A stretch of 64,000 bases of DNA, taken from the NCBI GenBank assembly GCA_041497675.1, contig JBGQGY010000002.1:14731-78730 (forward strand). Direction: 5' to 3'. Each line of letters starts with the position of its first letter. Position 1 is the stretch's first letter. Positions 11,206-35,044 of this stretch are shown in pieces. A program made the translations under genes and the position numbers. This stretch comes from a bacterium. GTDB lineage: Bacteria; Sysuimicrobiota; Sysuimicrobiia; Sysuimicrobiales; Humicultoraceae. The notes below the pieces were generated by a model, which was not told where the DNA came from, did no database searches, and saw only the letters and a program-made list of their open reading frames with translations.

Positions 11206-11229
11206 TGGCAGAACCCCTGATAACTATCC

Positions 11230-12033: not shown

Positions 12034-12051
12034 GACAGAACGCGTACTGTC
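12034..12051. promoter_or_regulatory. Imperfect 18-bp palindrome (GACAGAACGCGTACTGTC) in the 125-bp spacer between the two response-regulator paralogs
   Basis: Read directly from the sequence. It has two mismatches and a central ACGCGT core, and lies upstream of the downstream regulator gene. Confidence 0.3.
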
Positions 12052-12093
12052 TGGTAGATATGTTAGCTTCAGTGCCTGCGGTGAGGATTCCTC

Positions 12094-12747: not shown

Positions 12748-12768
12748 ACAGATTCTCCAACTCTCATT

Positions 12769-13947: not shown

Positions 13948-14153
13948 GACCCTCCGGCAATATCTATTATGCCCATCGTGAGGACTTCTAGACCCGACCG
14001 GACTACGCCGCTCGGAGGAGTGACTAGGCGGCTCGAAACGTGCCTGCATCCCCCCGTGGCGGTGCACCACCGGCCGGGGTGCCGTTGGACCAGCATAGGG
14101 CCTCGGCGCGTCGGGGGAAAGGCCCGGGGTGGTCTCCCGGCCGGGCGGCGCCC

Positions 14154-14849: not shown

Positions 14850-14966
14850 GTAAGAACTGTTCCCAAGCCCGTTCGGCTCCAGGCCGCCGCGGCCGACCCC
14901 GCCGGGCAGGGTGTGACAGGGAGGGATGGATCTTTCGCGCAGAGAAGTCCGTTCTTATAGAGGGCA

Positions 14967-16157
14967 ATGCGAGGGGTGAACCTGCTCAGGCTGTGCCTGG
15001 CCGTCGCCCTGTGCGGCGGCCTTGTCGTCCCGCGCGCGGGCGCCGGACCGGGCGGTTTGCTCACCCCTGTCATTGTCTACGTGCCCGAGGAGTTCCATAC
15101 CGGTGGCGCGTATACCGCGATCCAAGCCAGCGCGGATGGCCGGGTCTATATCGGGACGACAATCTATGACGGGTACGCGCACTTGCTCGCGTTTTCTGCG
15201 GCCTCGGGGCGGTTCGAGAACCTGGTGAACGTCGGGGTGGTCACCGGCGAGCGCACCCCCGGACCGTACGCCCAGGCCAAGATCCATACGAAGCCGGCCA
15301 TCGCGCCCGACGGCCGTGTCTACGTCGGCACCAAGTCCGGCAAGCCGGCCCGTGAAGCGCGCTGGCAAGAGAACTATCCCGGCGGCCATCTGCTCGTCTA
15401 CGATCCGCGGGCCGGGACTACCACCGATCTCGGCATCATCAAACCAAAGGTCAGCATCATCGCCGTGGGGGTCGACCCCTCGCGCGGCATCGTGTATGCC
15501 CTCACCGATCCGGACAGCCATCTTGTGACCTATGATCCGCGAACCCGACAGTTTGTCGACCGCGGGCAGTTTGGACCGCCCGGGCAGGATCCGACGCGCT
15601 ATCTGGTCGTGCTCGCCAACGGCGACGCCTTCCACCGGTGGGACACCAGCACCATGTCGAGATTTGTGGCCTCGTCGGGATCGATCGAACGCGTGCCGCT
15701 GGTCGTCACGGGTGCGGGGACCTACGAAGCACCGTACGCGGTGGCCACGGCGCCCGACGGGCGCCGATTCCTCGGCGTCGGCAAGACATCGGGCCAGGCG
15801 TACGTGTTCGAGCCGAGGGAACGGGACATTGCCGTGCGAATCCTCGGGGCCGTCGCGCCGGACGGGTACACGACGTCGGGCAGCCACTACACGATGACGG
15901 CGGCGCCAGACGGCGCGGTGTACTACACGGGGCAGTTTGGGCAGGACCTGTTCGTCGAACGCGTGCCGGCCGACCTTGGGAGACCCGTGCTCGTCGGCCG
16001 CGTTGCGCCCCTTGGGCCGCCGCCGGCGGGGTACTCGCGGCAGGTCGCCCGCGACTTGGTCGTGCAGGGATCGACGGCCACGCCGGACGGCACCCTGATC
16101 GTGATGACGGCGTATCCGCTGCGGCTGCTGCTCTTTAGGGGCCTGGCGCCACGGTGA
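14967..16157 (+). CDS. Secreted repeat protein, probably a beta-propeller, with a signal peptide
   Basis: An N-terminal signal peptide (LLRLCLAVALCGGLVVPRAGA) is followed by a recurring PDGRVY/APDG..Y repeat. A GAGGGG Shine-Dalgarno precedes the GTG start. Confidence 0.6.
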   Translation: MRGVNLLRLCLAVALCGGLVVPRAGAGPGGLLTPVIVYVPEEFHTGGAYTAIQASADGRVYIGTTIYDGYAHLLAFSAASGRFENLVNVGVVTGERTPGPYAQAKIHTKPAIAPDGRVYVGTKSGKPAREARWQENYPGGHLLVYDPRAGTTTDLGIIKPKVSIIAVGVDPSRGIVYALTDPDSHLVTYDPRTRQFVDRGQFGPPGQDPTRYLVVLANGDAFHRWDTSTMSRFVASSGSIERVPLVVTGAGTYEAPYAVATAPDGRRFLGVGKTSGQAYVFEPRERDIAVRILGAVAPDGYTTSGSHYTMTAAPDGAVYYTGQFGQDLFVERVPADLGRPVLVGRVAPLGPPPAGYSRQVARDLVVQGSTATPDGTLIVMTAYPLRLLLFRGLAPR

Positions 16158-17383
16158 GCGGGGTTCGCGCGCTCATCGCGGCGTTCCTACTGGCGGGGGC
16201 GCTCTTCAGCGCTCCCGCGATCGTTCCGGACGCGCGCGCCGCGGCGCCATCGAAGCGGATCGCGTTCCTGATCGATTCGTGGTATCCAATCTCGCACGCC
16301 GACGTAATCGGCACGCGGTTCCTCGAGGGCTACCGGATGGGCGATCGGACGTATCCTTCCCCGGTCGGCGTCGCCTCGGTCCTCACGATTGCCCCGCGAC
16401 CAACCGACCGCGGCAACGAACTCACCTCGCGCTATGGCATCCGTCTTGCGGGGTCGGTGGCCGAGGCGCTGCTCGACGATCCGCGGGCTGCGCAACCGAA
16501 GCTGGCCGTGGATGGCGTACTGCTCGCGGTACGCACCCCGCTGCCCGCGACAACTCCGGCGGAGCCCTCCGGACAGTTCCGGCTCTTCAGGGACACGATG
16601 ACGGTCTTCGATCGCGCAGGCAGCCGCGTGCCGGTCTTCGTCGACAAGAACCTGGCCGCGACGTGGCAGGAGAGTCAGACGATCATGACCGAGGGCGCAA
16701 AGCGGGGCGTGCCGTTGATGGCCGGGTCCGTCGTCCCATGGGTGCCCCTTGAGCCGTCGCTGCCGGTGGGACGCAAGCCGCTCGTGGCGGTCGCCGTGGC
16801 CGCGGCGCCGTACGACCTGTACGCCATCCACGTCGCCGATCTCTTGCAGGCAGTCGTCGAGACGCGCGGCGCGAGGGAGACAGGGGTCGCGTGGGTGCGG
16901 GAGGTGGGTCGGGGCTTCTGGTCGATGCCGGACGGGAACCAGTGGGGGCGCGACGTCCTGGACACGCTGTTGACCACCGCGCGGACGCGGCGGTCCTACG
17001 CGCCGAGGATTCCCGACGGACTGACAGACGACGTCTATGTGGTCTTAGTGCAGTATGTCGATGGGATGAGGGGCGTTGTCGCGTTGATGACGCGCCAGTT
17101 CGATGACGCGGAGTTTCGCGTGGGGATCCGCTACGAGGGGCAGGTGGCGCCGTACATCGGTGGGCTGGTGCTCGGCGGGGCCCCGTACGATCACTTCGGC
17201 TATCTCGCTCACGCGCTCGTGCAATTCTACACGACCGGTAAGCCTGTCGCGCCGGCCGACCGGACGCTGCTGAGTACGGGGATCAGCCTGATGGGCATGC
17301 AGTCACGCCAAACGGGAGGGCAAACGATCTCGTCCCCAACGCTTGGCGTGAGCTACGCGGTGTTCAATACGTTTAGCCGCTAG
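16154..17383 (+). CDS. Secreted hypothetical protein with a signal peptide
   Basis: A signal peptide (ALIAAFLLAGALFSAPA) is present. Its start overlaps the stop of the upstream gene (ATGA), implying a two-gene operon. Confidence 0.55.
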   Translation: MSGVRALIAAFLLAGALFSAPAIVPDARAAAPSKRIAFLIDSWYPISHADVIGTRFLEGYRMGDRTYPSPVGVASVLTIAPRPTDRGNELTSRYGIRLAGSVAEALLDDPRAAQPKLAVDGVLLAVRTPLPATTPAEPSGQFRLFRDTMTVFDRAGSRVPVFVDKNLAATWQESQTIMTEGAKRGVPLMAGSVVPWVPLEPSLPVGRKPLVAVAVAAAPYDLYAIHVADLLQAVVETRGARETGVAWVREVGRGFWSMPDGNQWGRDVLDTLLTTARTRRSYAPRIPDGLTDDVYVVLVQYVDGMRGVVALMTRQFDDAEFRVGIRYEGQVAPYIGGLVLGGAPYDHFGYLAHALVQFYTTGKPVAPADRTLLSTGISLMGMQSRQTGGQTISSPTLGVSYAVFNTFSR

Positions 17384-17397
17384 CCGGCCACCTTCGC

Positions 17398-19053
17398 TTA
17401 CTTCGCCAGCGCGTACAAGTGGTAGTGCTCGTCCGCGTATTCGGTCTTCCAACCGGCGCAGCCCTCGAGCCCGCCGCCTCTCAGGATGACGTGGGTGACC
17501 CCGTACCCGGAGGATAGCTCCTTGAGGAGGCGGCAACGCTCTTCCGGGGAGGGCTGGACGGGTGTCGGAGCCGGGGCCTGCCGTGGCGCGCGGCCGGTCC
17601 GACGGCCTTCGCGCTGGTAGCGGAAGTCATCCTCCGCGTTCGCCTCGACCTCACCGTAGAACGCCTGCGCCAGGTGCAACCGCTTGTACCATTCCATCAC
17701 CCCGACGTCATCGTAAGGGATGACCGAATGTTCCATAAAAGCCGGGGCACCAGTATAGAGCCGAAACGTGCGCCAGTTCGGCGGAATGAGATAAGTTTGA
17801 CCAGGCACTCCCGTGCGTTTGACGTGCCGCATGACGGTGGGTATCCGCCTCGCGTCCAGGGCAAACCGCGCTCTGGTCTCAAGCACTCCGGCGATGCAGA
17901 ACAATACCAGGACGCCCACGCTCGCCACAACGAGGGCCTGCCCCGCAGCCGCGCCGGTTTCGAGCCGGCTGACCACGAGGGACACGGCGTATCCGAGGAT
18001 GATCAGGGTCGCGAGCGGCACGGTGAAGGCCGACATCCGCCAGGGAAGGAGTGCGGCGAGCGTGTTGTTGTATCGGACGGCCTGCGCCGCCGTCAGCACC
18101 GCCGTGGTGAGAAACGACCCCAGGAGAATCCAGAAAAAATCGGTCTTCCGAACAAGATAGAGGGCAGCCACGATCAGCGCGACCTTGATGTAGACCGCCC
18201 CACCCAGCCATAGCGACGGCACCGAGGGCGGATAGTACGCGACCCGCCAGAGGATATTCTGCGCTTCCTTCCAGAGCGCGGGATTCGTCGGGCCGAACGC
18301 CAGATAGGAATACGCCAGCACCGGCAGGATGAGCACGAACGCCAGGAGACCCAACCCGATTGCCGGCCGTACTCCCTTCCCGCGCCGGATCATGATGGCC
18401 ATGTAGGTGAGTGTGAGCACTGCCGAGCAGAGGACGTAACTGGGTTGGAATATCGATGCGATCGTAGACGTCGTGATGGCCCATACCGGCCGGCCGCGCA
18501 TGAACAGGTAGATCGAGAGCAACAGAAACGCCCCAAAGGTGCCCGGGTTCAGCATGTCCCCCAGGATGCGTTTCTCGCCGATGCCCTCCAGCAACAGGAT
18601 CCGGCCGATGTTGAAGTGGTGCGGTGACGAGGTGAGCGGCAGGCGAAGGCCCATGCGGACGAGGTAGCCAAATACCGGCGAGTGGAGCGCGACCATCAGG
18701 GTCACAAAGATGAGAAACGTCGCGCGCGTGCGGTGGATGGGAACGAGCTGCGAGATGATACCAATCATAGAGAACGCGTAGACGCCAGCCAGCACGAGGA
18801 AGTACAGATACACGAGGCGCAGACTCAGATATCGCTGCGTAAATTCGACCAGCCCGGAGAACACGGGCCACGGATCCGGCGTCTGAGCGAACCAGTCGGC
18901 GCGCAGCAGGCCATAACCCGCCTTGGCCAACCCCTGGAAGAAGTATTGATTCTGCGTGTGATAAAAGAGCGCGTACTGCGCATAGGCGACGGCGAACGCC
19001 GCCGCCGCAAAGAGCACATACGACCGGGGCACCGGCCGTGACACGTCGACCAT
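17398..19053 (-). CDS. Large polytopic membrane protein (about 12 TM helices plus a C-terminal soluble domain), family not recognised, possibly GT-C-like
   Basis: A 551-aa hydrophobic N-terminus is followed by a C-terminal domain of about 130 aa (IPYDDVGVMEWYKR...THVILRGG). It is a paralog of 26980..28620 and shares NQYF, LRxDW and DPxPxFS motifs with it. Confidence 0.6.
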   Translation of the reverse strand: MVDVSRPVPRSYVLFAAAAFAVAYAQYALFYHTQNQYFFQGLAKAGYGLLRADWFAQTPDPWPVFSGLVEFTQRYLSLRLVYLYFLVLAGVYAFSMIGIISQLVPIHRTRATFLIFVTLMVALHSPVFGYLVRMGLRLPLTSSPHHFNIGRILLLEGIGEKRILGDMLNPGTFGAFLLLSIYLFMRGRPVWAITTSTIASIFQPSYVLCSAVLTLTYMAIMIRRGKGVRPAIGLGLLAFVLILPVLAYSYLAFGPTNPALWKEAQNILWRVAYYPPSVPSLWLGGAVYIKVALIVAALYLVRKTDFFWILLGSFLTTAVLTAAQAVRYNNTLAALLPWRMSAFTVPLATLIILGYAVSLVVSRLETGAAAGQALVVASVGVLVLFCIAGVLETRARFALDARRIPTVMRHVKRTGVPGQTYLIPPNWRTFRLYTGAPAFMEHSVIPYDDVGVMEWYKRLHLAQAFYGEVEANAEDDFRYQREGRRTGRAPRQAPAPTPVQPSPEERCRLLKELSSGYGVTHVILRGGGLEGCAGWKTEYADEHYHLYALAK

Positions 19054-19073
19054 GAGATCCTCCTGGCGCGCTG

Positions 19074-20387
19074 TTAGAACGTGATCTCTTGCAGTTCGCG
19101 GAAGCGGCCCGAACGTAATGGTTGCCCGTCACTTGCCTGCGCGAGCTCGCTGAAGTTGTCGCTCCTGGTGGTCACGACGGACACCACGTACATCAGTTCC
19201 TGCTCTATCTGACTCTGGAACTGCACCGCCAGCCTGGCCAAGTCGCTGGCATCGCCGACACCCTGATAGCGTGGCAGCGCGAGCGAACGGGACACCTCCA
19301 GGCGACCCAAGAAGTGACTGGCATATATCGCCTGGTTTCGCGCCGTCTGGCGGGGATTCTTGAACGACCGGTCGATGGCCCACGTGGCCATGAATGCCGA
19401 GTACATGCCCAGTACGACTCCAATCGAGAATATCGGGTCGACAAATGCGGCCGCGTCGCCCGTCAGAAAGAACCCAGGGCCCGAGAGCTGCGCGGGACGA
19501 TAGGAGTAATCGCGGATCATACGCGTGCTGCCCTCACAGAAGGTCGCGTGCTCGAGCAGCCGGTCAAGATACTGTGTCTCATAGCACTTACGCAAGAAGT
19601 ATTCCTCGAGCCCCTTGTCTGTGGCCTTGATACGCTTCAGGTGGTCGATCGGCACCACCAGACCGACACTCGTGCTCTCGCGCAGAGGGATATGCCACGA
19701 CCACCCCCACTCACCCAATTCCCCGACGGATGAGATAAATGTTGTGGGTGGGATCTGGCGGACGTGTTCGAACCCGTGCGCGCGACCGCCCGCGGCGACG
19801 TACTTCGATCCGGTGAAATACCCCCACACGCTCATGAAGCGAAACCCCTCGTCGATCACACGCATGCCGAGCTGTTTGGCGATGACGGCCCCCTGTCCGC
19901 TGGCATCGATCACGAATCGGCAGGCGATCCTGTCCGTTGCCTCGTCATCGGCCGCGCGGTACGCGACCGTGACGCGCTCGCCCCCGTTGAGGTCGACTTT
20001 GGTCGCCGACACGTCCTCAAACACCTGCGCGCCCTGTTCGCGGCTGTGCTCCAGCAGGATCTGGTCGAACCGATCACGCTCGACGTGCAGGGCCGGTCGC
20101 GTGTAGCCGAAGTCGGCGAAAGCGAGCTGTCGAATCACCCCGTGCCAAGCGTGCGTCCCACCGGCTTTCTTGATGAAGTCTTCTTCCTCAATTTTCTTCG
20201 TCGCGCCGAGCATGTCCGTATACTTCCAAAAGTGCGGGATGAGGCTCTCGCCGACGACATAGCGAGGGTGCCGGCGCTTCTCCAGCAGCACAACATCGTA
20301 CCCCTTTTGCCGCAGCAGCGTTGCCGCTGTGCTGCCGGCCGGCCCGCCGCCAATAACAACAACGTCGCACTCTCGCGGTATGCGCAT
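19074..20387 (-). CDS. Flavin-dependent halogenase (tryptophan-halogenase family)
   Basis: It carries an FAD-binding GxGxxG (VVVIGGGPAGSTAA), the family-defining WxWxIP motif (GWSWHIP) and a GDAA...FVDPIFSIG motif. Confidence 0.6.
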   Translation of the reverse strand: MRIPRECDVVVIGGGPAGSTAATLLRQKGYDVVLLEKRRHPRYVVGESLIPHFWKYTDMLGATKKIEEEDFIKKAGGTHAWHGVIRQLAFADFGYTRPALHVERDRFDQILLEHSREQGAQVFEDVSATKVDLNGGERVTVAYRAADDEATDRIACRFVIDASGQGAVIAKQLGMRVIDEGFRFMSVWGYFTGSKYVAAGGRAHGFEHVRQIPPTTFISSVGELGEWGWSWHIPLRESTSVGLVVPIDHLKRIKATDKGLEEYFLRKCYETQYLDRLLEHATFCEGSTRMIRDYSYRPAQLSGPGFFLTGDAAAFVDPIFSIGVVLGMYSAFMATWAIDRSFKNPRQTARNQAIYASHFLGRLEVSRSLALPRYQGVGDASDLARLAVQFQSQIEQELMYVVSVVTTRSDNFSELAQASDGQPLRSGRFRELQEITF

Positions 20388-20432: not shown

Positions 20433-21386
20433 TTAGTCTTTGATTGAGGACTGAACCCACTTGATGGTGAGGTCGAGGACGTTGTCTTGCACGTCGAGGC
20501 TGGTGAGATTGTTCGGCATGCCCTCGATGGGCGCCAGGGTAATCCGGTCACCGGCCTGATCGAACAGCTCGCGATATGTTCCGGTCTGGAGCTGCACGAA
20601 ATCCCGATACATCGATGACCCGCGGCCGTAGACGAACATCACCGGCACGCCGCGGGACACCAAAGCACGGAGCGAGTCAACCACCGACTTCGAGAGCCAC
20701 TCGGTTTCCGCGCCACCGTTTCTCCGACGCCTGAACAGTTGGCCCGCCGCGAGGTGGAGTTTTCGCATCCACCGTTGGCGGCGGCGCGGGTCGCGCATCC
20801 CCCGCAGGATCCGCGTCCAGGCGCCGTGCCGCGCGGCATTCCGCACGTCGTCCAACGCCCACCGGTTCACGGCCTGCTCGGTCTGGCCGCGCTCGTGGAG
20901 AGGCGGTGAGATCAACGCCACGCCGAGAAGGTTGCGGGCGTGCTGAACGCCCAGCAGCGCGGTCCGAGCCCCGAAGCACCGGCCGATCAGGACGACCTTG
21001 TCGAGCCCGCGCCGGTGAAGTTCCTCGATTGCCCCATGCAGGTCCTGACCGAATGGCTCTTCGTTTGTCGCGAGCGTGATCACGGCGTGCTTGAGCGCGC
21101 TCCCACTCGAGGGCCCGCTGCTTTCACCGAACCCGCGATAGTCAAAACGTAGCACGTGGAATCCCAGCGCGGCGAGGCGCCGGGCCAGACGTGGTTGAAC
21201 GCGGTTTCGGTCCGACGTCGCGTTGAGCAGCACAACACCGATCCCACGAGGGGGCCCCAGGGGCTCCGTCAAGATCCCAAAGGCCCGGTCATCTGCCACC
21301 GGAAACCGCACGGGGATCTCCGTGCGGCTGATCGCTTCGGCCTCAATCAACTGATCGTGCGGTGTTGCCGTGCTCGCGTTCGCCAT
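20433..21386 (-). CDS. Alpha/beta-fold hydrolase
   Basis: The product has an HVLRFDYRGFGESSGP region and a nucleophile-elbow context, and is similar in size and type to 26052..26948. Confidence 0.7.
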   Translation of the reverse strand: MANASTATPHDQLIEAEAISRTEIPVRFPVADDRAFGILTEPLGPPRGIGVVLLNATSDRNRVQPRLARRLAALGFHVLRFDYRGFGESSGPSSGSALKHAVITLATNEEPFGQDLHGAIEELHRRGLDKVVLIGRCFGARTALLGVQHARNLLGVALISPPLHERGQTEQAVNRWALDDVRNAARHGAWTRILRGMRDPRRRQRWMRKLHLAAGQLFRRRRNGGAETEWLSKSVVDSLRALVSRGVPVMFVYGRGSSMYRDFVQLQTGTYRELFDQAGDRITLAPIEGMPNNLTSLDVQDNVLDLTIKWVQSSIKD

Positions 21387-21413
21387 GATGCAGACCCCTC
21401 AAGAGTAGAATGC

Positions 21414-22937
21414 TTACGCCTGCTCCGCCGCACGCCGCCTCGGACTTCGCCGGCCGGGGACCACTTCGCGGATTGCGCGGACCAACCCGCGAATAACCTG
21501 CGGGTCGATCAGCCACAGCGCGGCGGCGTAGGTCACGGCTCCGGCCGCAATCAGGATGATCAACACGACGACTTCGGGCAAGTGGGCATGGCCCTCAAGC
21601 ACCCACATCAGCGTGGCCACAACGGCGGCCATGATCGTGCATCCGATGACCGTCGCGTTCAGGGCGGCCCACACATCCCTAACGGTCATGCCGATCGCCT
21701 GGGACACGTAGCGATAGACGATCGGCATCAACGCGATGGTGGCGACCAGATAGCCTGCGGCGACGCCGATGATTCCCCAATGGAGCCCGACGACGAACGC
21801 CGGCAGGTAGAGGCCGACGGAAAACATGGACAGACGCAGGCGCAGACCCGGCTTGCCGGTGGCCTCCAGCCCTGTCGGCCAGAACGTCGTCAGCAGGCGC
21901 AGGAACCCGGCGATGGTCAGCACCCGGATGACCGGCACAGCCGGCAGCCACTTCGCGCTAAACACCACACTCACGGCCAGCGGGGCGACGAGGGCCAGAC
22001 CGACCAGCATCGGCAACGTCACCATCGTCACATACTGGGTGGCGCGCATGAAAGCGTTTTTGAAACGCACCGCGTCGTCCTGTAGCCTGGACAGGGCTGG
22101 GAAGAACACCCGGTTGAGCAACCCGATGTCGTTGAGCGGCGCCAGAAAGACGGAATAGCCAAACGTGTAGTAGCCCAACGCCGTCGCCCCCAGATACCGG
22201 CCGACGAGCAAGTTGTCCATTTGCCGCACGAAGTAGTCGAACAGGGACGCCCCCTGCAGCCGGCCGCCAAAGGACCAGAGTTCAAGAAACTTCGAACGGA
22301 CAAACACGAACCGCGGCCTCCAGCCGGTAGCGCGCCAGAGCAGAAGGGTCCCGGAGGCGTACATCGTGAGCTCCTGACCGACGAAGCTCCACACGCCCAT
22401 ACCGCGGTACGCCATCGAGATCCCGACCACACCGCCGACCAGCGTCGCCGCCATCGAGCGAAAGGCCAGCAACCGGTAGTCCATGCGCCGGGACACGATG
22501 GCCATCTGCATGGATGCGCCCGAGATGATCAAGAAACTCAGGGACAGCACCGACAGCACGCGACCGACCAGCGGATCGCCAAGCCAGCGCCCGACGAGGA
22601 TGCCTGCGAGGGCGCCGAACGCCGCAAGGATGACGCCGAGCGTCACGCTTGCCCAGAAGCCTGTGGACAGATACTCGTCGTCGATCTCCCGGCGCTGAAT
22701 GATTGCTGAACCCATCCCCATGCTCCCGATGATGCGGAGGAACGTGAGGAAGACCGCGGCCAGCGCAAAGACGCCGTAGTCCTTTGGGAGCAACAGGCGC
22801 GCCAGGACGACCGCAAAGATCTGGTCAACGACCCGGCGCCCGAATTGATCACCGCCGAACCACAGGATCCCACGCATTGTCGCCGCGCGAAGCCGATGCA
22901 ACGGCACGCCGGCGGCGGTGGTTATCTGTTCAGACAT
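21414..22937 (-). CDS. Wzx-type oligosaccharide flippase (MOP/polysaccharide biosynthesis protein family)
   Basis: A 507-aa protein with about 14 TM helices and a conserved N-terminus (VVDQIFAVVLARLLLPKDYGVFALA...GSAIIQR). Confidence 0.75.
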   Translation of the reverse strand: MSEQITTAAGVPLHRLRAATMRGILWFGGDQFGRRVVDQIFAVVLARLLLPKDYGVFALAAVFLTFLRIIGSMGMGSAIIQRREIDDEYLSTGFWASVTLGVILAAFGALAGILVGRWLGDPLVGRVLSVLSLSFLIISGASMQMAIVSRRMDYRLLAFRSMAATLVGGVVGISMAYRGMGVWSFVGQELTMYASGTLLLWRATGWRPRFVFVRSKFLELWSFGGRLQGASLFDYFVRQMDNLLVGRYLGATALGYYTFGYSVFLAPLNDIGLLNRVFFPALSRLQDDAVRFKNAFMRATQYVTMVTLPMLVGLALVAPLAVSVVFSAKWLPAVPVIRVLTIAGFLRLLTTFWPTGLEATGKPGLRLRLSMFSVGLYLPAFVVGLHWGIIGVAAGYLVATIALMPIVYRYVSQAIGMTVRDVWAALNATVIGCTIMAAVVATLMWVLEGHAHLPEVVVLIILIAAGAVTYAAALWLIDPQVIRGLVRAIREVVPGRRSPRRRAAEQA

Positions 22938-22968
22938 TGGTGTAGGTTCTGTCCGGCTGGGAGCTCAA

Positions 22969-23235
22969 TCAGGCGCCCGCGCGGCCGCGGTCGAGCATCT
23001 TCTTGTCGACCAGGCTCGCAATCGACGCAATCGTGCCAAAATTCGCCGGAACGAGTTCCTCGTCGGCTAGCTCGATCCCAAATTGCTGTTCCACGAAGGA
23101 CACGAGCATCAGCAGACCCATGGAGTCGACCACGTGATTCTCGATCAACCCAAATTCGGGCGTCAACGCGCCCTTTGTCTCATCCCAGTGCAGTTCACTC
23201 AAGAGAAAGTTTCTCACCGTCACGGCTGTTGTCAC
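22969..23235 (-). CDS. Acyl carrier protein
   Basis: An 88-aa four-helix protein with a phosphopantetheine-attachment motif (VVDSMGLLMLVSFVEQQFGIEL). An AAGGAGGA Shine-Dalgarno lies 10 nt upstream of the GTG start. Confidence 0.75.
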   Translation of the reverse strand: MTTAVTVRNFLLSELHWDETKGALTPEFGLIENHVVDSMGLLMLVSFVEQQFGIELADEELVPANFGTIASIASLVDKKMLDRGRAGA

Positions 23236-23281
23236 CTAGCTGTCCTCCTTCTGGAAACCCGGCTTTTTGTGGTTCACCAGC

Positions 23282-23298
23282 CCGCACATTATGTGCGG
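23282..23298. repeat. Perfect palindrome CCGCACAT-TA-TGTGCGG that spans the stop codon of the AMP-ligase gene, immediately upstream of the ACP gene
   Basis: Read directly from the sequence. The TAA stop (23289-23291) sits in the loop of an 8-bp-arm hairpin. Confidence 0.4.
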
Positions 23299-24886
23299 TT
23301 GGGGACCGTTGACGCCGGCGCCGCCAGAGCGGTCCGGTCGGTCTTGCCCGTCGACGTCTTGGGTAGGGCCGGCACAAACTCAAAGATCTCCGGCAGCATG
23401 TATCGGGGCAGCAGCCCGGCGCAGAACTTCGTCAGGTCGCCGTCGTCCACGGCCGGGTTGTTCGTCACGACGAAGGCCTTGATCCGACTACCCACCACAT
23501 CGTCCGGGATGGCGATGACGGCGCATTCGGCCACGGCCGGGTGCGCGGAGAGCGCCGACTCGATGTCGCCCAACTCGATGCGGTACCCCCGACTCTTGAT
23601 CTGGTGATCCCGGCGCCCCAGAAAGATGGTGTGGCCGTCCGCACGTCGCCGGACCAGGTCGCCCGTCCGATAGACTCGGCCTTTCATCGGTCCTGACGGA
23701 TTCTGCAGGAACGCCCGGGTCGTGCGCTCCGTATCCCCCCAATAGCCCTGCGCCACCGTGTCGCCCCGCACCTGGAGTTCACCGACCTCCCCGTCGGCCA
23801 TCGGCTGTCCCGACTCGCCGACCACAAACACGTCGACGCCGCCGATGGGCACACCGATAGGAATAGACTCGGTCTGGTCTGCCGGCAAGAGCGGTACCGG
23901 GTAATACGTGCAGACGTTGGTCTCCGTCGGCCCATAGAGGTTGGTGAACACCGCGTGCGGTACCAACCCCATCAGCGCCCGCAGGTGTTTGGTCGGGAAC
24001 ACCTCACCCGCAAAGATCAGGTGCCGGAGCGTGCGCAACCGCCCAACGGTCAGGTTGCCGCGCAGCACCAGAAGCGTCAGCACGGAGGGTACCGAGTACC
24101 ACATCGTGATGCCGCGGTCCTCGATGAACCTGGCCAGCTGCACCGGAAAGACCGAGATCTCGGGAGGGACGATGGCCAGGGCCGCTCCGGCCATCGCCGC
24201 CGCGAAGATATCGAGGATCGTCAGATCGAAGTGCAGCGGCGCATGATTCGAGAACACGTCCTCGGGCGTCCCGCCAAAGTAATCATGACACCACCCAACA
24301 AACGCCAGCGCGTTTCGGTGCGACAGCATCACGCCCTTCGGTTGTCCCGTCGATCCCGACGTGTACAGGATATAGGCCAGGTCGCCGCTGCTGCCCTCGA
24401 CGGTGTGCGCGGCGGTCGGCGCGGCTTCCAGCGCATCGGTCCCCAGGCACCGTACGCCTTCCGGTGTAGCGCCTTCGTCACCTCGGGCGTCCAGGACGAC
24501 CAGGTGCTGGAGCGGGGCACCCGCGCCTACGAGCCCGCTCCACTCTCGAGATTTCTCCCGATGCGTCACCAGGCAGCGGACTCCACAGTCGCGGGTAATA
24601 TACCCCAGACGCTGGGCCGGGGCGGCCGGGTCCAGCGGTACATAGGCGGCACCGGCCTTGAGGATGCCGTAGATGCCCACGATGGCCTCGTTACATTTGT
24701 TCAAGAAGAGGCCGACGCGATCGCCCGGGCGGATTCCGGCTTCGCGCAGCGCAAACGCCAGTTGATCGGCGCGACGGTCGAGCTGCGCGTACGTCATGAC
24801 CCCGCGTGTATCCCGCAGCGCAATGCGACCCGGGAATCGGTTCGCGGCCTCCGCAACGAGGTGGGGCAACAGCACCGCGTTCACAG
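23289..24886 (-). CDS. AMP-dependent synthetase/ligase (adenylate-forming acyl or aminoacyl ligase)
   Basis: It has the adenylation core motifs (YTSGSTGQPKGV, YGPTE) and a TGD...K region. The start is trimmed to a GTG that overlaps the acyl-CoA dehydrogenase stop as GTGA; the track ORF begins 54 codons upstream. Confidence 0.85.
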
Positions 24887-26026
24887 CCCGAGGCCTCCGG
24901 CGATGATGTTCCGCTGGATCTCCGACGTCCCCGAGTACAGCCGGCTTCCAACGGCGTCGCGAAGTTCGCGTTCCAATTCGTACTCGGCCGTGTATCCGTA
25001 TCCGCCGTGAATCTGCACCGCGTCGAGGCTGGATTCCACAAAACATTCGCTCAAATAGAGCTTAACCATCGCCGATTCCATCGCCGTGCGTTTGCCCTGA
25101 GTCTTCAACCAGCCTACCTTGTACAGCAAGAGCCGCGCGGTCTCGAGCCGGACCTTCATGTCGGCGATCCGGTGCGCCACGGCCTGAAACTTGCCGATAG
25201 GCTGACCAAACTGTGTCCGCTCCTTCGCGTGCGCGACGCACCGTTCGAGCTGCCGCTGCATCGTCCCTACCGCCGTCGCGAGTATGCAGGTACGCTCCCA
25301 GTCCATCGACGTGTTGAAGATCGTCGAGCCGGCGCCTGGAGCACCCAGCAGGTTCTCATCGGGAACCTCGCAACCGTCCAGGGCCAGCTCGCCCATCGGG
25401 GATGTTCGGAGTCCCATCTTGTGTATCTGACCGGCTACCGACAGACCCGGTGTCTGCCGCTCCACAATGAAGGCCGAGAGCCCGGCAAATCCCATCGCTG
25501 GATCAGTCCGGGCAAATACGAGAAAGACATCGGCGACGGGAGCATTCGTGATGAACGTCTTGCTGCCGGCGATCACATACCCACCGCTCGTCTTACGGGC
25601 CGTGGCACGAAGGCTGAATGCGTCCGAGCCGGACATCGGTTCGGTCATGGCCTGGACGCCGATCATGGTCCCGTCGCACAGCCGGGGTAAGTAACGCTCC
25701 TTTTGGTCTTCTCGCCCGAACTTCCACAAAGGGAGCTGAAAACTCCACATCTGCGCGTTGAGGGAGAATAACAGCCCGTTGTCTCTGCACGCGTATCCAA
25801 GCGCTTCCAGCGCGATCAGCGTCGTCAACGGGTCCAGACCGCCACCGCCATAGGCCTCAGGAAACGGCAACCCTTGAATCCCAAATGTGCCGCATTTCTC
25901 CCACAGCGCGCGCGAAAAATCGCCGTGCAGATCACGTGTCAACAGGTCGTCACGCAGTTCGCGCTCGGCGAACCGTGTCACGGCCTGCTGAAGCTGCTCT
26001 TGGTCTTTGGTCAGCGAGAAGTCCAT
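24881..26026 (-). CDS. Acyl-CoA dehydrogenase
   Basis: A 381-aa protein with canonical acyl-CoA dehydrogenase N-terminal, middle and C-terminal domains (MTEPMSGSD..., YSGTSEIQRNIIA). Confidence 0.9.
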   Translation of the reverse strand: MDFSLTKDQEQLQQAVTRFAERELRDDLLTRDLHGDFSRALWEKCGTFGIQGLPFPEAYGGGGLDPLTTLIALEALGYACRDNGLLFSLNAQMWSFQLPLWKFGREDQKERYLPRLCDGTMIGVQAMTEPMSGSDAFSLRATARKTSGGYVIAGSKTFITNAPVADVFLVFARTDPAMGFAGLSAFIVERQTPGLSVAGQIHKMGLRTSPMGELALDGCEVPDENLLGAPGAGSTIFNTSMDWERTCILATAVGTMQRQLERCVAHAKERTQFGQPIGKFQAVAHRIADMKVRLETARLLLYKVGWLKTQGKRTAMESAMVKLYLSECFVESSLDAVQIHGGYGYTAEYELERELRDAVGSRLYSGTSEIQRNIIAGGLGL

Positions 26027-26051
26027 CGACGCAAACGCTCCATGTCCTGCA

Positions 26052-26948
26052 TCAAACGGCGGGAATCGTGCGCGTGAGCCACGCAGCCGACGCCTCCACG
26101 ATCACTCTCGGGGAGGGCATGGGACTATCGACAAAGGCCCACGCCCCTTCGCCGAGGATCACCGTGGCTTCGACGGAACAGCCGGCCGCAACCAACGCAT
26201 CTTGCAGCCTCGCGAACTCGGGCTTGACGGCCTGTTGGGGGCTGATCTGCACCAACAGGACCGGCCGGGCGCCGGCGGCAGCCAATTGCGTCAGGCTCCG
26301 GCCTTCCGCGCTGTTGTACAACGCGCGGTGAATTGGATATCCCAACGTATCCAGCACGCCCACGGCAGCCACGCGCTCCACGGCCTGCGTCACGGTCAAA
26401 GCGCTCGCACCCCCGGCGAGGGCGCTGATCTGGCTCGCGCGGAAGATCTCTCGAAAATATCCCCGACCGTCCATGACGGGTTCCCACAGAATTAGCGGAG
26501 CGCCGGGATGTTGCAGCGCCGTGAGCGCGGCAACCAGACCGCCCCACCGTCCGCCGCAAAACGCCAACGCGGAAACTCCAGTGCGGGTCTTGAGATACTC
26601 GACCGCCGCGGCGGTGTCCTCAAGCATCGTATCGAGGGTCGTGTCGTCAAACGCGCCACTGCTGTGCCCGGTCCCGCGGTAGTGGAAGCGAATCGTCGCG
26701 AGTCCGGCCTTCGCGAAGGCCCGCGCGGTCAGGACATGGGTACCGTACATCTTGTGCTCTTCGGCGAGCATTCCCTGGCACATCACCACACCGGCGCGCG
26801 GCGCCGCTTCACCCCGGTGAACCACGCAAAAGAGCTCCCCGTGCTGCGTGGGGAGAAACATCGCATCCTCGTACACCTGCTCCGCCGGATCGACATACCG
26901 GGCGACGCGCGGCGGAACGGTCATGCCCACACTTTCAACCCTTGCCAT
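26052..26948 (-). CDS. Alpha/beta-fold hydrolase
   Basis: A 298-aa protein with an RFHYRGTGHSSG region, followed by a nucleophile elbow near AFCGGRWGG. Confidence 0.65.
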   Translation of the reverse strand: MARVESVGMTVPPRVARYVDPAEQVYEDAMFLPTQHGELFCVVHRGEAAPRAGVVMCQGMLAEEHKMYGTHVLTARAFAKAGLATIRFHYRGTGHSSGAFDDTTLDTMLEDTAAAVEYLKTRTGVSALAFCGGRWGGLVAALTALQHPGAPLILWEPVMDGRGYFREIFRASQISALAGGASALTVTQAVERVAAVGVLDTLGYPIHRALYNSAEGRSLTQLAAAGARPVLLVQISPQQAVKPEFARLQDALVAAGCSVEATVILGEGAWAFVDSPMPSPRVIVEASAAWLTRTIPAV

Positions 26949-26979: not shown

Positions 26980-28620
26980 TCAGCGTGCCGTGACGCGATA
27001 GACGCCGTATTCGGCATCCTCATATGCGGGGTGCAGGCGACCGCAAGTCCCATCGGTTTGCGCCCGTCGAAGCACCACGTGAGTCACGGCATAGCGGCGC
27101 ACCACATCCGAAAGCGTCTGGCAAACCAGCGCCGGATCGTTGAGCCGAGACAGCCCCCAGGCCGTTTCAGACCGAGAAACCCACTCGACCAGTTCCACGT
27201 CCTTGTACGGAATAGATTTGCGATCGACGAAGACCGGGGCGCCCGTGTAGAGCCGGAACCGCTCCAGCACAGGGGGGATCAGGTACAGATCGCCAAGAGA
27301 CTTGGTCCTTCGCACGAAGTCCATCACGGGCACGCTGGCATCCTGTCTGTCCTCGTCCGCGAGTCGTTGCGTGTACTGCCAGCCGCCGACCATGAGCAAC
27401 ACGAGGGCCACGGCGCATCCCCATGTCAGGAGACGTTCTCGTTGGGCAGTGTCTTTCACAAACCGACTGTCGAACCAGGACACAAGAGCGGCCGCCAGCA
27501 CACTTGTCGCTACCGGAACCACATACACGGACAACCGCCACGGAAACAGCAATGCCAGGCCGGGGCTTCCCGATACCACCTGGACCACGGTGAGCACGAC
27601 ACCGACCACCGTGGAGATCAGCAGCACGGCGAAGAGCCGTGGCGATCGCCGGGCGACGACAAGTCCGGCACACACCAAGACTATTTGCACGTACGCAGGC
27701 GTGCCGAGCCACCGGTGGACAAGTGCATGGTGTTGCAACCGCACATTCATCAGAACGTCCTGCGCGGCCGCCCATGCCGATGGGGAGGTCGGACGGAACG
27801 CGACCACCACGTACGCGGCCATTGGCAGCAGCAGCAGCGCTCCGAGAATCCCGATACCGACGGCCTGCCGAGTATCTCGAGTCTCCTTGATGATGACGAG
27901 TACGTACGACAGGATCAGCACGCCGGCTGCCAGCAGGTACGCGGGATGCAAGATGGCGGCCGCGGCTCCGTGGACGACGGCGACCTTCCGACGGTCTTGT
28001 GCGAACGCGTGGATGGACGCGATGAGGAACACTCCGGCCATACTCGGCTGCAGAATATCTCCCATCAGGAACTGCCCGGCAACACCATTCGTGAATACCG
28101 CCCGCAGGTCGATGCCGAGGGTCGGCAGCGACAGCGCGGCCAGCAGCGCCGAGTGTATCCCCAACAACAGCATCACGTACGCCGCCAGCCTGGTCCGTGA
28201 GGCGTCCACCGGCACAGTGCGCAAAGTCAGACCGATGAGCCCGCTAAAGTAGACGCCGGCCAGAACCATGAAGTAGACGAAAAACAACCCCTCGTGAAGA
28301 TAGCGCGTAGTCAACTCGACCAGGAAGCTGAATATGGGCGTCGGGTCAACCGTCGTCGCCAGCCAGTCGTGGCGCAGGAGACCCACGCCGGCCCGGGCAA
28401 ATCCATGAAGGAAGTATTGATTTTGATTCGATGTGTACAGCGGCGCCTGTCCGTAGATCACACCCCCGACAATCGCCAGGATGGCGAACGTGCCCAGGCG
28501 CAGGAGCATGACGCGAACGGCGGCCACGCTCCCGGATGGCCATGCCGGAGCGGGTTCGACCTTCGGCCCCGCCTCGGTGGCGGTTGCCCGCCCGGCGTCC
28601 AGGCTGAAGCCCTTCATGTG
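26980..28620 (-). CDS. Large polytopic membrane protein, paralog of 17398..19053
   Basis: It has the same architecture and shared motifs (NQNQYFLHGFARAG, LRHDWLA, IPYKDVELVEWVSR...THVVLRRAQ). The start is trimmed to M at about 28620 (an alternative is about 28509), because the track ORF overlaps the upstream methyltransferase by more than 100 nt. Confidence 0.6.
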   Translation of the reverse strand, partial: HMKGFSLDAGRATATEAGPKVEPAPAWPSGSVAAVRVMLLRLGTFAILAIVGGVIYGQAPLYTSNQNQYFLHGFARAGVGLLRHDWLATTVDPTPIFSFLVELTTRYLHEGLFFVYFMVLAGVYFSGLIGLTLRTVPVDASRTRLAAYVMLLLGIHSALLAALSLPTLGIDLRAVFTNGVAGQFLMGDILQPSMAGVFLIASIHAFAQDRRKVAVVHGAAAAILHPAYLLAAGVLILSYVLVIIKETRDTRQAVGIGILGALLLLPMAAYVVVAFRPTSPSAWAAAQDVLMNVRLQHHALVHRWLGTPAYVQIVLVCAGLVVARRSPRLFAVLLISTVVGVVLTVVQVVSGSPGLALLFPWRLSVYVVPVATSVLAAALVSWFDSRFVKDTAQRERLLTWGCAVALVLLMVGGWQYTQRLADEDRQDASVPVMDFVRRTKSLGDLYLIPPVLERFRLYTGAPVFVDRKSIPYKDVELVEWVSRSETAWGLSRLNDPALVCQTLSDVVRRYAVTHVVLRRAQTDGTCGRLHPAYEDAEYGVYRVTAR

Positions 28621-29390
28621 CCCGCCTTGTGGGCCACGCACAGCAGCGACAGCCCCAGCGGAAGATCCATCACCCGGATCAAACTTCGCTCCAGTAGCAG
28701 CACGCGATACGCCAACCAGTTCCACGGGTTGGCGAGGTCGAGTGGATCAGCCTGCGGTCTTGCGTCACGACGCACCGCCGATATCAAGCGGACGGCCACC
28801 GCGACGGGAAGCAGCAGGGCGTTGAAGTAGGTGACCCGCACGACCTGAAACCCGCACGCCTCAAGGAGCCGCCGGATCTCGCCACGCGAGTAGCGCCGGA
28901 CATGTCCCAGGGCCCTGTCGTGTTCGCTGTACAACCACGACAGCGCGGGGACGGTGATGAGCAACGTGCCGCCAGGTTTCAGCACGCGAAAGCACTCGCG
29001 AAGCACGCGTCCGTCGTCCTCCACGTGCTCGAGGACATCGGTGATCCCCGCCAGATCCAGCGCGTCCCCTCGTAGCGGCATGCCCTCAAGCGTCCCGATA
29101 GCCAGGTTTCGATATCCCCGCGTGCGGCACACGGCGACTGCCAATGGCGAGATGTCAATGCCCACGACCTCACCATGCGCACGCAGGACGTCGGCCATCC
29201 CGCCGGCGCCGCATCCAAGATCACCGACGGTGCCGTTCGCGGCGCCGTTCAATTGACTCTCTAAGACCGCCCGGACGAGATCCCGGCGGCCGCGGACCCA
29301 CCAAGAGGTCTGGTCGGACTGGGCCAGGCGGGCGATCTCCTGTTCGTTGGGCCCAAACGCCTCGGGGTGATGGTCGACGCCGGTCGACAC
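28614..29390 (-). CDS. Class I SAM-dependent methyltransferase
   Basis: It has a glycine-rich SAM motif (VGDLGCGAGGMA) and the motif LKPGGTLLITVP. Confidence 0.75.
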   Translation of the reverse strand: MSTGVDHHPEAFGPNEQEIARLAQSDQTSWWVRGRRDLVRAVLESQLNGAANGTVGDLGCGAGGMADVLRAHGEVVGIDISPLAVAVCRTRGYRNLAIGTLEGMPLRGDALDLAGITDVLEHVEDDGRVLRECFRVLKPGGTLLITVPALSWLYSEHDRALGHVRRYSRGEIRRLLEACGFQVVRVTYFNALLLPVAVAVRLISAVRRDARPQADPLDLANPWNWLAYRVLLLERSLIRVMDLPLGLSLLCVAHKAGT

Positions 29391-29391
29391 C

Positions 29392-30189
29392 TTAGGGCTT
29401 CTCCGAGAGCGCCGGCGGCTGCCGATCGTTGACGACCGCAGCCATAGCCGTCACATCATACTGGTTGGTCCGCAGCCAGTAGGCGATCCTCACCATGTCA
29501 CGGAACATGCTCAGGCTGTCGCGCCCGAGGCTCACCTTGCTGTGGTTCACATGCGACCAGCGCACCGGCACCTCGACCAGACGGTAGGCTGCCTGTGCGG
29601 CCAATCCCAAGACTTCCACGTCAAAGGCGAATCCGTCGATCTTTGCGTGGGCGAACAGCCGCCGGGCGACCGAGCCGCGGAAGAGCTTGAACCCGCACTG
29701 CGTGTCGAACACCCCGGGCAGGATGGCGAGCTGCACAAACACGTTGAACAGCCGCCCCATCATTTCGCGGTAGATGGGCTGGCGCAGGACGAGTCGCGAG
29801 CCACGCATTCCTCGAGAACCGATCGCAATGTCGGCTCCCGCGTTAATCGGCGCCAGGAGAGATTCGAATTCCTCAATCGGGGTTGCGAGATCCGCGTCGG
29901 TCACCAGGATGAGATCACCGGTCGAGGTCGCGACCCCGCGTCTTACCGCGCTGCCTTTGCCTTCATTGCGTGGACCCCGCACCAGTTGGATCGACGGGTG
30001 GGTGCGCTGAAGAGTGTTGACGATCTCACCCGTTGCGTCGACACTCCCGTCATCCGACACAATAATGTCGTGCGGCTCGTGCCGACCATTCATGTACTCT
30101 GCAATCATGGTAATGGTTCTTTCGATCCGCCGCTCTTCGTTAAAAGCCGGCACCACGATTGATACGTGCTGATGCCCCGGTCTCTCCAT
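29392..30189 (-). CDS. Family 2 glycosyltransferase (polyprenol-phosphate sugar synthase, DPM1-like)
   Basis: It has the GT-A DxD region (VSDDGSVD...DADL) and an IVVPAFNEE N-terminus. A GGAGGA Shine-Dalgarno lies 7 nt upstream. Confidence 0.85.
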   Translation of the reverse strand: MERPGHQHVSIVVPAFNEERRIERTITMIAEYMNGRHEPHDIIVSDDGSVDATGEIVNTLQRTHPSIQLVRGPRNEGKGSAVRRGVATSTGDLILVTDADLATPIEEFESLLAPINAGADIAIGSRGMRGSRLVLRQPIYREMMGRLFNVFVQLAILPGVFDTQCGFKLFRGSVARRLFAHAKIDGFAFDVEVLGLAAQAAYRLVEVPVRWSHVNHSKVSLGRDSLSMFRDMVRIAYWLRTNQYDVTAMAAVVNDRQPPALSEKP

Positions 30190-35032: not shown

Positions 35033-35044
35033 ACCGAAACTCGG

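Follow-up and report, generated by a model that had tools for sequence, protein, structure and literature searches.

What does a set of acyl-activating genes do inside a bacterial surface-polysaccharide locus? The question is raised by a stretch of 64,000 nucleotides from a member of the Humicultoraceae (Sysuimicrobiota; assembly GCA_041497675.1, contig JBGQGY010000002.1), hereafter the window. Six minus-strand genes at 20433-26948, here called the acyl block, run in the same direction in one tight array, with -4 to 53 bp between neighbours, and encode an acyl ligase, a small carrier protein, a dehydrogenase, a Wzx flippase and two alpha/beta-hydrolase-fold proteins, Hyd1 and Hyd2. A halogenase gene lies directly downstream, just outside the block (Table 1). 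The block coordinates agree with those called independently on identical contigs of two NCBI metagenome-assembled genomes (MAGs), a JGI metagenome and Logan assemblies. Because a pyrrole-forming cassette and a halogenase are tied here to a hydrolase-fold pair inside a surface-polysaccharide locus, the likely role of the module is to attach a (chlorinated) pyrrole acid to a sugar polymer of the cell surface.

The proline cassette and the halogenase

The ligase scored 409 bits against TIGR01733, the amino-acid adenylation domain model, which passes the cut-off of 317, and its best single-domain solved structure was PltF, the L-proline-[prolyl-carrier-protein] ligase of pyoluteorin biosynthesis. 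A search with its A4-A5 pocket segment retrieved 6O6E (PltF) at 119.7 bits and 7THN at 84.6 bits, both of them prolyl-carrier ligases, ahead of the next match at 75 bits. In the pocket alignment, the nine positions of the Stachelhaus code read DLLYIALVC, compared with DLLYLALVC in PltF, so that the sole difference is a conservative I/L exchange; by this alignment the ligase is a stand-alone adenylation domain (A-domain) with a proline-type specificity pocket. It also scored 277-280 bits against DltA models.

The carrier protein has the phosphopantetheine-serine motif VDSMG and matched the NCBIfam models AmcB (48 bits) and OlsHI-ACP (39 bits), while its Pfam PP-binding score of 19.2 bits was just short of the cut-off of 20.8. 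For the dehydrogenase, whose stop codon is overlapped by 4 nt by the start codon of the A-domain gene, the best NCBIfam model was PigA (466 bits, cut-off 500) and RedW scored 420 bits (cut-off 650). The best solved structure was the prolyl-acyl carrier protein (ACP) dehydrogenase AnaB (4IRN, 431 bits), followed by a butyryl-CoA dehydrogenase (330 bits), the L-prolyl-peptidyl carrier protein (PCP) dehydrogenase 5ZW0 (327 bits) and other acyl-CoA dehydrogenases at no more than 293 bits.

With high confidence, these matches identify the ligase, carrier and dehydrogenase as the canonical cassette that would convert L-proline to pyrrolyl-2-carboxyl-S-PCP. A preliminary description of this DNA had held that an acyl-CoA dehydrogenase joined an acyl ligase set; the dehydrogenase instead appears to be an integral part of the prolyl-PCP to pyrrole cassette. 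A generic fatty-acyl ligase paired with an acyl-CoA dehydrogenase was rejected on two grounds: the ligase is above the cut-off for amino-acid adenylation and shares the proline pocket of PltF, and the dehydrogenase belongs to the prolyl-carrier type.

For the acyl-forming half of the module there are precedents in the Plt (PltF/PltL/PltE with PltA), prodiginine (PigI/PigG/PigA and RedM/RedO/RedW) and aminocoumarin (CloN4/CloN5/CloN3) systems, which likewise combine a proline A-domain, a stand-alone carrier and a prolyl-carrier oxidase. Those systems, however, feed small-molecule assembly lines of polyketide synthases (PKS) and nonribosomal peptide synthetases (NRPS), whereas the neighbours in the window are glycan-assembly genes.

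The halogenase scored 101 bits against Pfam Trp_halogenase (cut-off 21) and 219 bits against the NCBIfam CmlS model, and its closest solved structures were CmlS (3I3L), 8ZOP, CndH (3E1T), RadH and PltA (5DBJ). It contains the motifs GGGPAG, WSWHIP and FVDPIFSIG and a Lys pair that aligns with VKKP of CmlS; together, the GxGxxG and WxWxIP motifs, the conserved Lys and the Trp_halogenase match are those of a flavin-dependent halogenase. Halogenases of the CmlS/CndH type are lidless and are thought to act on carrier-bound substrates, and we suggest that this one acts on the carrier-bound pyrrole. As in the pyoluteorin cluster, an FADH2-dependent halogenase is adjacent to the cassette, but that of the window is of the CmlS/CndH type and is not an orthologue of PltA. 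Because a flavin halogenase needs an electron-rich aromatic substrate, its presence is indirect support for the pyrrole as the oxidation product, with a stop at pyrroline as the alternative.

Hyd1, Hyd2 and the exosortase-associated genes

The preliminary description had likened the block, together with a FemAB-like protein, CE4 deacetylases and GNATs elsewhere in the window, to the accessory genes of exosortase A (XrtA)/EpsH-type exopolysaccharide loci, and had suggested that XrtA-type acyl chemistry operates here without protein sorting. All of the genes that it named (acyl ligase, ACP, two hydrolases, dehydrogenase, halogenase, FemAB-like protein, CE4 deacetylases and GNATs) were recovered in Pfam and NCBIfam scans; the Wzx flippase and the proline-to-pyrrole identity of the cassette had escaped that description. 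Our Pfam and/or NCBIfam scans covered most long open reading frames (ORFs) of the window, a few small or housekeeping ORFs being left out, and among these no exosortase, PEP-CTERM protein or pyridoxal-phosphate decarboxylase was matched in the 64 kb. A regular-expression scan of all six-frame ORFs in the 64-kb window likewise gave no credible PEP-CTERM tail. We also considered whether an exosortase might be hidden among the membrane proteins, namely the polymerase candidate, the two ~540-aa paralogues and the DUF6798 proteins; this was rejected, as none matched an exosortase model in Pfam or NCBIfam.

In searches with the XrtA-associated models, every protein tested fell below its curated cut-off or had no match. 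The ligase scored 319 bits against TIGR03098 (ligase_PEP_1; cut-off 592), which was its second-best NCBIfam model and was outscored by TIGR01733. TIGR03100 and TIGR03101 were the best NCBIfam matches of Hyd1 and Hyd2, at 56 bits (cut-off 168) and 112 bits (cut-off 203), respectively. The CE4 deacetylase at 45718-46797 reached 16 bits on TIGR03006 (cut-off 276), the second CE4 deacetylase gave no TIGR03006 match, and the FemAB-like protein gave no TIGR03019 match at E <= 0.01. The proposed resemblance to the XrtA set therefore holds as distant homology and as a four-part architecture, but membership of the XrtA families fails for all models tested; the idea of XrtA-type chemistry without protein sorting agrees with the shared architecture and with the 64 kb free of exosortase matches, but the proteins themselves are not XrtA-family members.

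The hydrolase-fold proteins are unusual in their active sites. At the nucleophile elbow, Hyd1 has G-R-C137-F-G, and Cys is present in 62/62 homologues (G-x-C-x-G), a set that includes proteins named exosortase A-associated hydrolase 1 by JGI. The nucleophile position of Hyd2 is instead occupied by Arg134 (G-G-R-W-G), with Arg in all 35 close homologues (G-[GTA]-R-x-G) and in 144 of the 147 top cluster representatives from a profile search. Ser is the nucleophile in neither protein, and we rejected ordinary serine esterases and type II thioesterases for both. Confident AlphaFold2 models gave an ordinary capped alpha/beta-hydrolase fold for both Hyd1 (predicted local distance difference test, pLDDT, 85) and Hyd2 (pLDDT 88.7), the latter nearest to feruloyl/cinnamoyl esterases and lipases at <25% identity. 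In the clade of Hyd1 to which the window protein belongs, the canonical His position holds Asn or Arg, while most of the distant relatives keep the canonical His; a different residue, His164, which follows strand beta-6, is present in exactly those sequences that lack the canonical His and may be the migrated catalytic His.

Seven natural two-domain proteins fuse the families, six in the order Hyd2-Hyd1 and one as Hyd1-Hyd2, and this Rosetta-stone evidence suggests that Hyd1 and Hyd2 act as a complex. The features of the hydrolase 1/2 superfamily, namely a Cys elbow, an Arg at the nucleophile position and genes that are adjacent or fused, were all found. The Cys nucleophile of Hyd1 would suit thioester exchange with an acyl-S-carrier, and the Arg of the nucleophile-less Hyd2 suggests the binding of an anionic substrate.

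In an exhaustive search, a profile built from the Hyd2 alignment showed the family to be large: 1,150 representatives of clusters were retrieved at E <= 1e-30, and 8,626 at the looser threshold of E <= 1e-10. Because ten sampled members of this wider clade all scored 72-101 bits on TIGR03101 (cut-off 203), Hyd2 would, on sequence grounds, be placed not in the XrtA equivalog but in a sister clade that lies outside the 18,950 NCBIfam models scanned.

These data bear on whether the block is an XrtA/EpsH-type accessory set that was freed from exosortase sorting and performs the same acyl modification, with the dehydrogenase and halogenase as late additions. We consider this improbable. The leading positions of TIGR03100 and TIGR03101 for Hyd1 and Hyd2 and of TIGR03098 as second-best for the ligase would be expected of such a set, but the scores reach only 33-55% of the curated cut-offs. 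One near-identical cluster member is annotated by JGI as exosortase A-associated hydrolase 2, and the Cys and Arg signatures are common to XrtA-context proteins; the wider Hyd2 clade, however, scores as a sister clade. The window scans found no exosortase or PEP-CTERM protein, as this explanation requires, but they found no decarboxylase either, and the FemAB-like and CE4 proteins fail the XrtA-specific models. Finally, the dehydrogenase is no add-on but the obligate partner of a proline A-domain, and the same pair of genes also occurs in an XrtA-type locus.

That locus, L021, comes from a Burkholderiales MAG. Its glycosyltransferase passes TIGR04063, a PEP-CTERM/XrtA-system model (584 bits, cut-off 442), and at 8131-19637 it also carries a proline-type A-domain and a prolyl-carrier dehydrogenase. 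With Arg in the motif G-C-R-L-G, the Hyd2 protein of L021 scored 155 bits on TIGR03101, and the Hyd1-like protein of this locus has G-L-C-E-G at the elbow and keeps the canonical His. The four-part logic, with its prolyl-dehydrogenase variant, is thus also found inside a locus with an XrtA-system marker gene. Because L021 combines this marker with Hyd2, Hyd1 and proline genes, the XrtA analogy was a valid lead to the superfamily. Because TIGR03100 and TIGR03101 are the best models and the Cys and Arg signatures are common to both, the ligase-carrier-hydrolase 2-hydrolase 1 architecture is shared with XrtA systems, and Hyd1 and Hyd2 are, as judged from models and motifs, true distant relatives of XrtA hydrolases 1 and 2 that would be independent of protein sorting. 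The chemistry is better defined in the window than in XrtA loci.

Recurrence and exchange of the module

A sister strain, L069, has a different acyl supply at the same position. Its housekeeping flank is 96.6% nucleotide-identical to the window over 7.5 kb (window 9900-17404), with several proteins at 98-100%. This high identity ends at ~17404, the edge of the glycan locus, and within the glycan locus (to 31669) identity drops to 86%, then 77%, then 70%; the glycan locus is a hypervariable island beside the dnaK-clpB region. L069 retains the GT2 glycosyltransferase (98%), the methyltransferase (86%), DUF6798 (74%), Wzx (87%) and the halogenase (73%), together with Hyd2 (57%), Hyd1 (47%) and a carrier of the same type (44%). 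The proline A-domain and dehydrogenase are replaced by a FAAL-like ligase, an Rv2949c-like chorismate pyruvate-lyase and a PaaK-like aryl ligase. The Rv2949c-like chorismate pyruvate-lyase family makes 4-hydroxybenzoate, and the swap fits another electron-rich aromatic acid entering the same halogenase and transfer machinery. In the simplest reading, the halogenase, Hyd2, Hyd1 and Wzx would be a fixed delivery machine and the aromatic acid supply an exchangeable cassette.

The six block genes also recur together, in differing orders, in other genomes. In the window the order is Hyd2-DH-A-PCP-Wzx-Hyd1-Hal (DH, dehydrogenase; A, adenylation enzyme; Hal, halogenase). The nearest named genome with the whole block, at 51-74% amino-acid identity, is an Armatimonadota MAG (L007); there, as on a Logan contig (L072), the genes are contiguous as Hyd2-Hyd1-DH-A-PCP-Hal, downstream of GT-C, GT2, methyltransferase, DUF6798 and FemAB-like genes and an unassigned gene. 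A further MAG (L013) has DH-A-PCP-Hal-Wzx-Hyd1-DUF6798, and an Actinomycetota MAG (L071) has DegT-DH-PCP-Hyd2-Hyd1-A amid GT4, CE4 and sulfotransferase genes. The NCBI MAG L070 holds DH, A, several Hyd1- and Hyd2-family genes, Wzx, sulfatases and glycosyltransferases, and on the metagenome contig L073 a DH gene adjoins one for a Hyd1-Hyd2 fusion, PCP and A are close by, and the surrounding genes include GT4, sulfotransferase and CE4. A Wzx gene also adjoins the Hyd pair in L013, L069, L070 and L088, and the trio of DUF6798 protein b, methyltransferase and GT2 lies upstream of the block in L007, L069 and L072.

With the Hyd2 profile we drew a sample of 25 metagenome loci, each at least 8 kb long and containing a relative of Hyd2; several of them duplicate one another. 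The neighbours in these loci were Hyd1 (19/25), an adenylating enzyme (16/25), GT4 (12/25), a carrier (11/25), a dehydrogenase match (9/25, eight of them at >=499 bits), CE4 (7/25) and a halogenase-like protein (6/25). Because the same set stays together across phyla despite its shuffled order, we regard the genes as functionally linked; their grouping is not chance.

The company kept by these genes also bears on whether the product is instead a small diffusible halopyrrole metabolite (free halopyrrole-2-carboxylate or a precursor), with Hyd1/Hyd2 as the releasing thioesterase and the glycan context incidental. Sets of A-domain, PCP, dehydrogenase and halogenase genes do normally lie in secondary-metabolite clusters, but the scanned window ORFs, most of the long ones, matched no PKS, no condensation domain of an NRPS and no other enzyme of downstream assembly. 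When genomes were scanned with the dehydrogenase, 62 loci were retrieved, most with the dehydrogenase and A-domain pair, and many of these have halogenases and no Hyd pair; where the Hyd pair does occur, however, it travels with glycosyltransferases, Wzx, CE4 proteins and sulfotransferases across phyla, and in the window the Wzx gene sits in the middle of the block. While alpha/beta-hydrolase-fold proteins are often thioesterases, a nucleophile-less Hyd2 and a Hyd1 without the canonical His in this clade would be atypical for a hydrolytic thioesterase. The module also stays in place in L069, where the acyl-supply genes have been exchanged. We therefore consider a diffusible product unlikely.

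Other proteins accompany the module in some genomes. PAP2/VCPO-like (vanadium-haloperoxidase-like) proteins are found in L071 (15205-16746), L073 (17266-17803) and L070, and FG-GAP/UnbV_ASPIC proteins in all three. No flavin halogenase was called in the retrieved parts of L070, L071 and L073.

The glycan locus and the putative transfer step

The window has a G+C content of 61-67%. Its left 14 kb is housekeeping DNA (a GAF protein, ClpB, DnaJ, GrpE, DnaK, HSP20, MerR and a two-component system), and from ~17.4 kb to the right end nearly all genes are on the minus strand. Pfam identified glycan-assembly genes for two Wzx flippases, a Bac_transf initiating transferase, GT2, GT4 and GT-C enzymes, PglF/DegT proteins and CE4 deacetylases. 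Beyond the block and the genes next to it, the remainder of the locus encodes two GT-C (PMT_2) enzymes, DUF5989, two SGNH/GDSL proteins, a carbamoyltransferase with an SxtJ-like protein and a FemAB-like GNAT; then the two ~540-aa paralogues, a putative polymerase, DUF218, a PglF-like dehydratase, CE4, GT4 enzymes and GNATs; and finally the second Wzx, a DegT aminotransferase and the Bac_transf initiating sugar-phosphate transferase. The lone polymerase candidate had no family match in the Pfam and NCBIfam scans.

Table 1. Positions of the acyl block, the halogenase gene and other features in the 64-kb window
Feature	Coordinates	Strand	Evidence
Two overlapping genes (396 and 409 aa), divergent from the glycan locus	14967-17383	+	No Pfam/NCBIfam match
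DUF6798 membrane protein a, outer edge of variable glycan locus	17398-19053	-	Pfam DUF6798
FADH2-dependent halogenase, CmlS/CndH type	19074-20387	-	Pfam Trp_halogenase, NCBIfam CmlS
Hyd1, alpha/beta-hydrolase fold, Cys at nucleophile elbow	20433-21386	-	TIGR03100 best match, below cut-off
Wzx1, MOP-family flippase	21414-22937	-	Pfam Polysacc_synt_3 261 bits; NCBIfam MOP flippase 230 bits
Stand-alone carrier protein (PCP/ACP), 88 aa	22969-23235	-	VDSMG motif, NCBIfam ACP models
Stand-alone L-proline adenylation enzyme, PltF/RedM/CloN4-like	23289-24884	-	TIGR01733, PltF-like pocket
Prolyl-S-carrier-protein dehydrogenase, PigA/RedW/PltE/AnaB type	24881-26026	-	NCBIfam PigA/RedW, AnaB structure
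Hyd2, alpha/beta-hydrolase fold, Arg134 replacing nucleophile	26052-26948	-	TIGR03101 best match, below cut-off
DUF6798 membrane protein b	26980-28617	-	Pfam
S-adenosylmethionine (SAM) methyltransferase	28614-29390	-	Pfam
GT2 glycosyltransferase	29392-30189	-	Pfam
Remainder of surface-glycan locus	30267-55561	-	Pfam scans
DUF5989 mini-protein, 59 aa	31961-32140		
SGNH/GDSL proteins, two, membrane-anchored	33857-36229		Pfam
NodU/CmcH-type carbamoyltransferase, then SxtJ-like protein	36251-38334		
Paralogues of ~540 aa, two	38338-40239; 52707-54335		No Pfam match; faint PaaK-like signal (20 bits)
FemAB-like Acetyltransf_6 protein	ORF 39953-41452		Pfam
Putative polymerase	41164-42504		
CE4 deacetylases, two	45718-46797; 61448-62428		Pfam
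GNATs	47926-48666; 52124-52789; 62362-63405		Pfam
Second Wzx	48663-50714		
CoA-transferase and thiolase-like sub-block	55973-61604		

Some of these neighbours deserve separate mention. The two Wzx paralogues are probably some 45-50% identical, to judge from tblastn to L013, L069 and L072, and their presence in one locus would point to two lipid-linked glycans or to a flippase reserved for the acylated unit. One of the ~540-aa paralogues adjoins the FemAB-like GNAT, and these two genes lie directly upstream of Hyd2 in L007 and L072. The DUF5989 mini-protein lies between the two GT-C genes, and the carbamoyltransferase and SxtJ-like protein also lie inside the glycan locus; the SxtJ Pfam family takes its name from the saxitoxin biosynthesis operon. 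Between glycosyltransferase and deacetylase genes, a sub-block encodes two family-III CoA-transferases, a MaoC/FAS1-type dehydratase, a DUF35 (ChsH2 OB/zinc-ribbon) and thiolase-like pair and a two-domain glyoxalase-fold protein, and may be the source of a second, CoA-linked acyl substituent. L069 retains both plus-strand genes (96-98%) at the border of its glycan locus, and L072 has the second of them (69%).

With moderate confidence, we propose that the block is a carrier-dependent tailoring module of this Wzx-type surface-glycan locus. By homology, the A-domain would activate L-proline and load the 88-aa carrier, and the PigA/AnaB-type flavoprotein would oxidise the prolyl-S-PCP. The product would be pyrrolyl-2-carboxyl-S-PCP, which the adjacent FADH2-dependent halogenase would chlorinate or brominate on the carrier. 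The acyl group would then pass by transthioesterification to Cys137 of Hyd1. Hyd1 would form a complex with Hyd2, which has no nucleophile of its own and whose Arg134 may bind a negatively charged group (a diphosphate, a uronate or the phosphopantetheine phosphate). From Cys137 the acyl group would go to a sugar intermediate in the cytoplasm, either on a hydroxyl or on an amino group; this intermediate would be linked to undecaprenyl diphosphate or to a nucleotide, and the acylated unit would be exported by the Wzx encoded within the block. By visual inspection, neither Hyd1 nor Hyd2 has an obvious signal peptide or membrane anchor at its N-terminus, and therefore any transfer would be cytoplasmic, ahead of Wzx export. 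The transfer step and its acceptor are putative, as they are read from gene content and sequence motifs.

Several points weigh against this scheme. The dehydrogenase is as near to AnaB as to the pyrrole-forming PigA, its PigA score of 466 bits falls below the cut-off of 500, and oxidation by AnaB ends after two electrons. The pyrrolyl-PCP halogenases PltA, Mpy16 and Bmp2 are more distant from the halogenase than CmlS and CndH are, and the same halogenase orthologue stands beside a non-proline cassette in L069. Among the 62 dehydrogenase loci, Hyd genes lie within 10 kb in only three (L007, L013 and L021). The canonical triad His is absent from Hyd1 in the window's clade, the residue being Asn292, and we found no description of pyrrole-acylated glycans in the searched literature.

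The proposed transferase can be compared with several known systems. To our knowledge, CouN7/CloN7 are the sole described route by which a carrier-bound pyrrole-2-carboxyl group is placed on a sugar hydroxyl, and CouN7 is a Ser enzyme. CouN7 and CloN7 take this group off a carrier protein and attach it to a deoxysugar at the 3'-OH (PMC8748450, PMC11218499). Both they (with CouN1/CloN1 and CloN2, acting on the noviose of clorobiocin and coumermycin) and the proposed module would bring a carrier-bound pyrrole to a sugar through a dedicated acyltransferase, which is a functional resemblance only: the acceptor of CouN7/CloN7 is a small glycosylated antibiotic and no polymer, and the candidate in the window is a Cys-type protein with an Arg-type pseudo-hydrolase. 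The XrtA ligase, ACP, hydrolase 1 and hydrolase 2 share with the window the four-part architecture, the Cys and Arg signatures and the exopolysaccharide context, but the window proteins score far below the cut-offs, and no exosortase, PEP-CTERM protein, decarboxylase or XrtA-type FemAB protein or deacetylase was found in the window. In the Dlt system (DltA/DltC, teichoic acid D-alanylation), a stand-alone A-domain and a small carrier likewise supply an aminoacyl thioester for an envelope glycopolymer; in contrast, the window has no homologues of DltB (MBOAT) or DltD, its acyl group would be oxidised and probably halogenated before transfer, and its proposed transferases are cytoplasmic and of the alpha/beta fold. 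CmaE/SyrC-type transferases use a Cys nucleophile, and we know of no obligate Arg-type partner subunit for them. Likened by fold and function, they resemble the Hyd proteins in their alpha/beta-hydrolase fold, in handling carrier thioesters and in belonging to pathways with on-carrier halogenation, but they shuttle between two carrier proteins.

These last two systems suggest another destination for the acyl group: a non-glycan acceptor (a membrane lipid, a polyprenyl carrier or a surface protein), or a CmaE/SyrC-like shuttle to a second carrier for a Dlt-like extracytoplasmic step by the SGNH/GDSL proteins. CmaE-like alpha/beta-fold transferases do move aminoacyl groups from carrier to carrier (PMC8748450), and L088 and L080 have more than one carrier protein near their Hyd genes, but a single carrier protein was found in the window. 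The A-domain scores ~280 bits on DltA models, whereas the window scans found no MBOAT/DltB-like protein. Two membrane-anchored SGNH proteins are encoded in the window, but SGNH genes are absent from several module-bearing loci. We regard this explanation as doubtful and prefer the transfer to a cytoplasmic glycan intermediate.

In the literature that we searched, the presence of the cassette in polysaccharide loci, the Cys/Arg hydrolase-fold partner pair and the strain-level swapping of cassettes appear undescribed, and we found no description of a function for the XrtA-associated hydrolase 1/2, ligase and ACP genes. More tentatively, we suggest that Hyd1/Hyd2 constitute a hitherto unrecognised two-subunit (or fused) carrier-dependent glycan acyltransferase, with a Cys-type catalytic protein and an Arg-type pseudo-hydrolase, that would equip the surface polysaccharides of bacteria with interchangeable aromatic acyl groups (in this locus, halogenated pyrrole-2-carboxylate), and that by extension the same function would explain the XrtA-associated ligase, ACP and hydrolases 1 and 2. 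A large uncurated family, along with the XrtA-associated genes, would thereby gain a concrete functional hypothesis. If true, the well-known route of secondary metabolism from proline to carrier-bound halopyrrole would be linked to the tailoring of cell-envelope glycans. Since near-identical strains differ in their cassettes, acyl decorations may diversify surface antigens, as O-antigen sugars do, and halogenated aromatic esters would, if the proposal is true, be a new strain-variable class of surface-glycan decoration.

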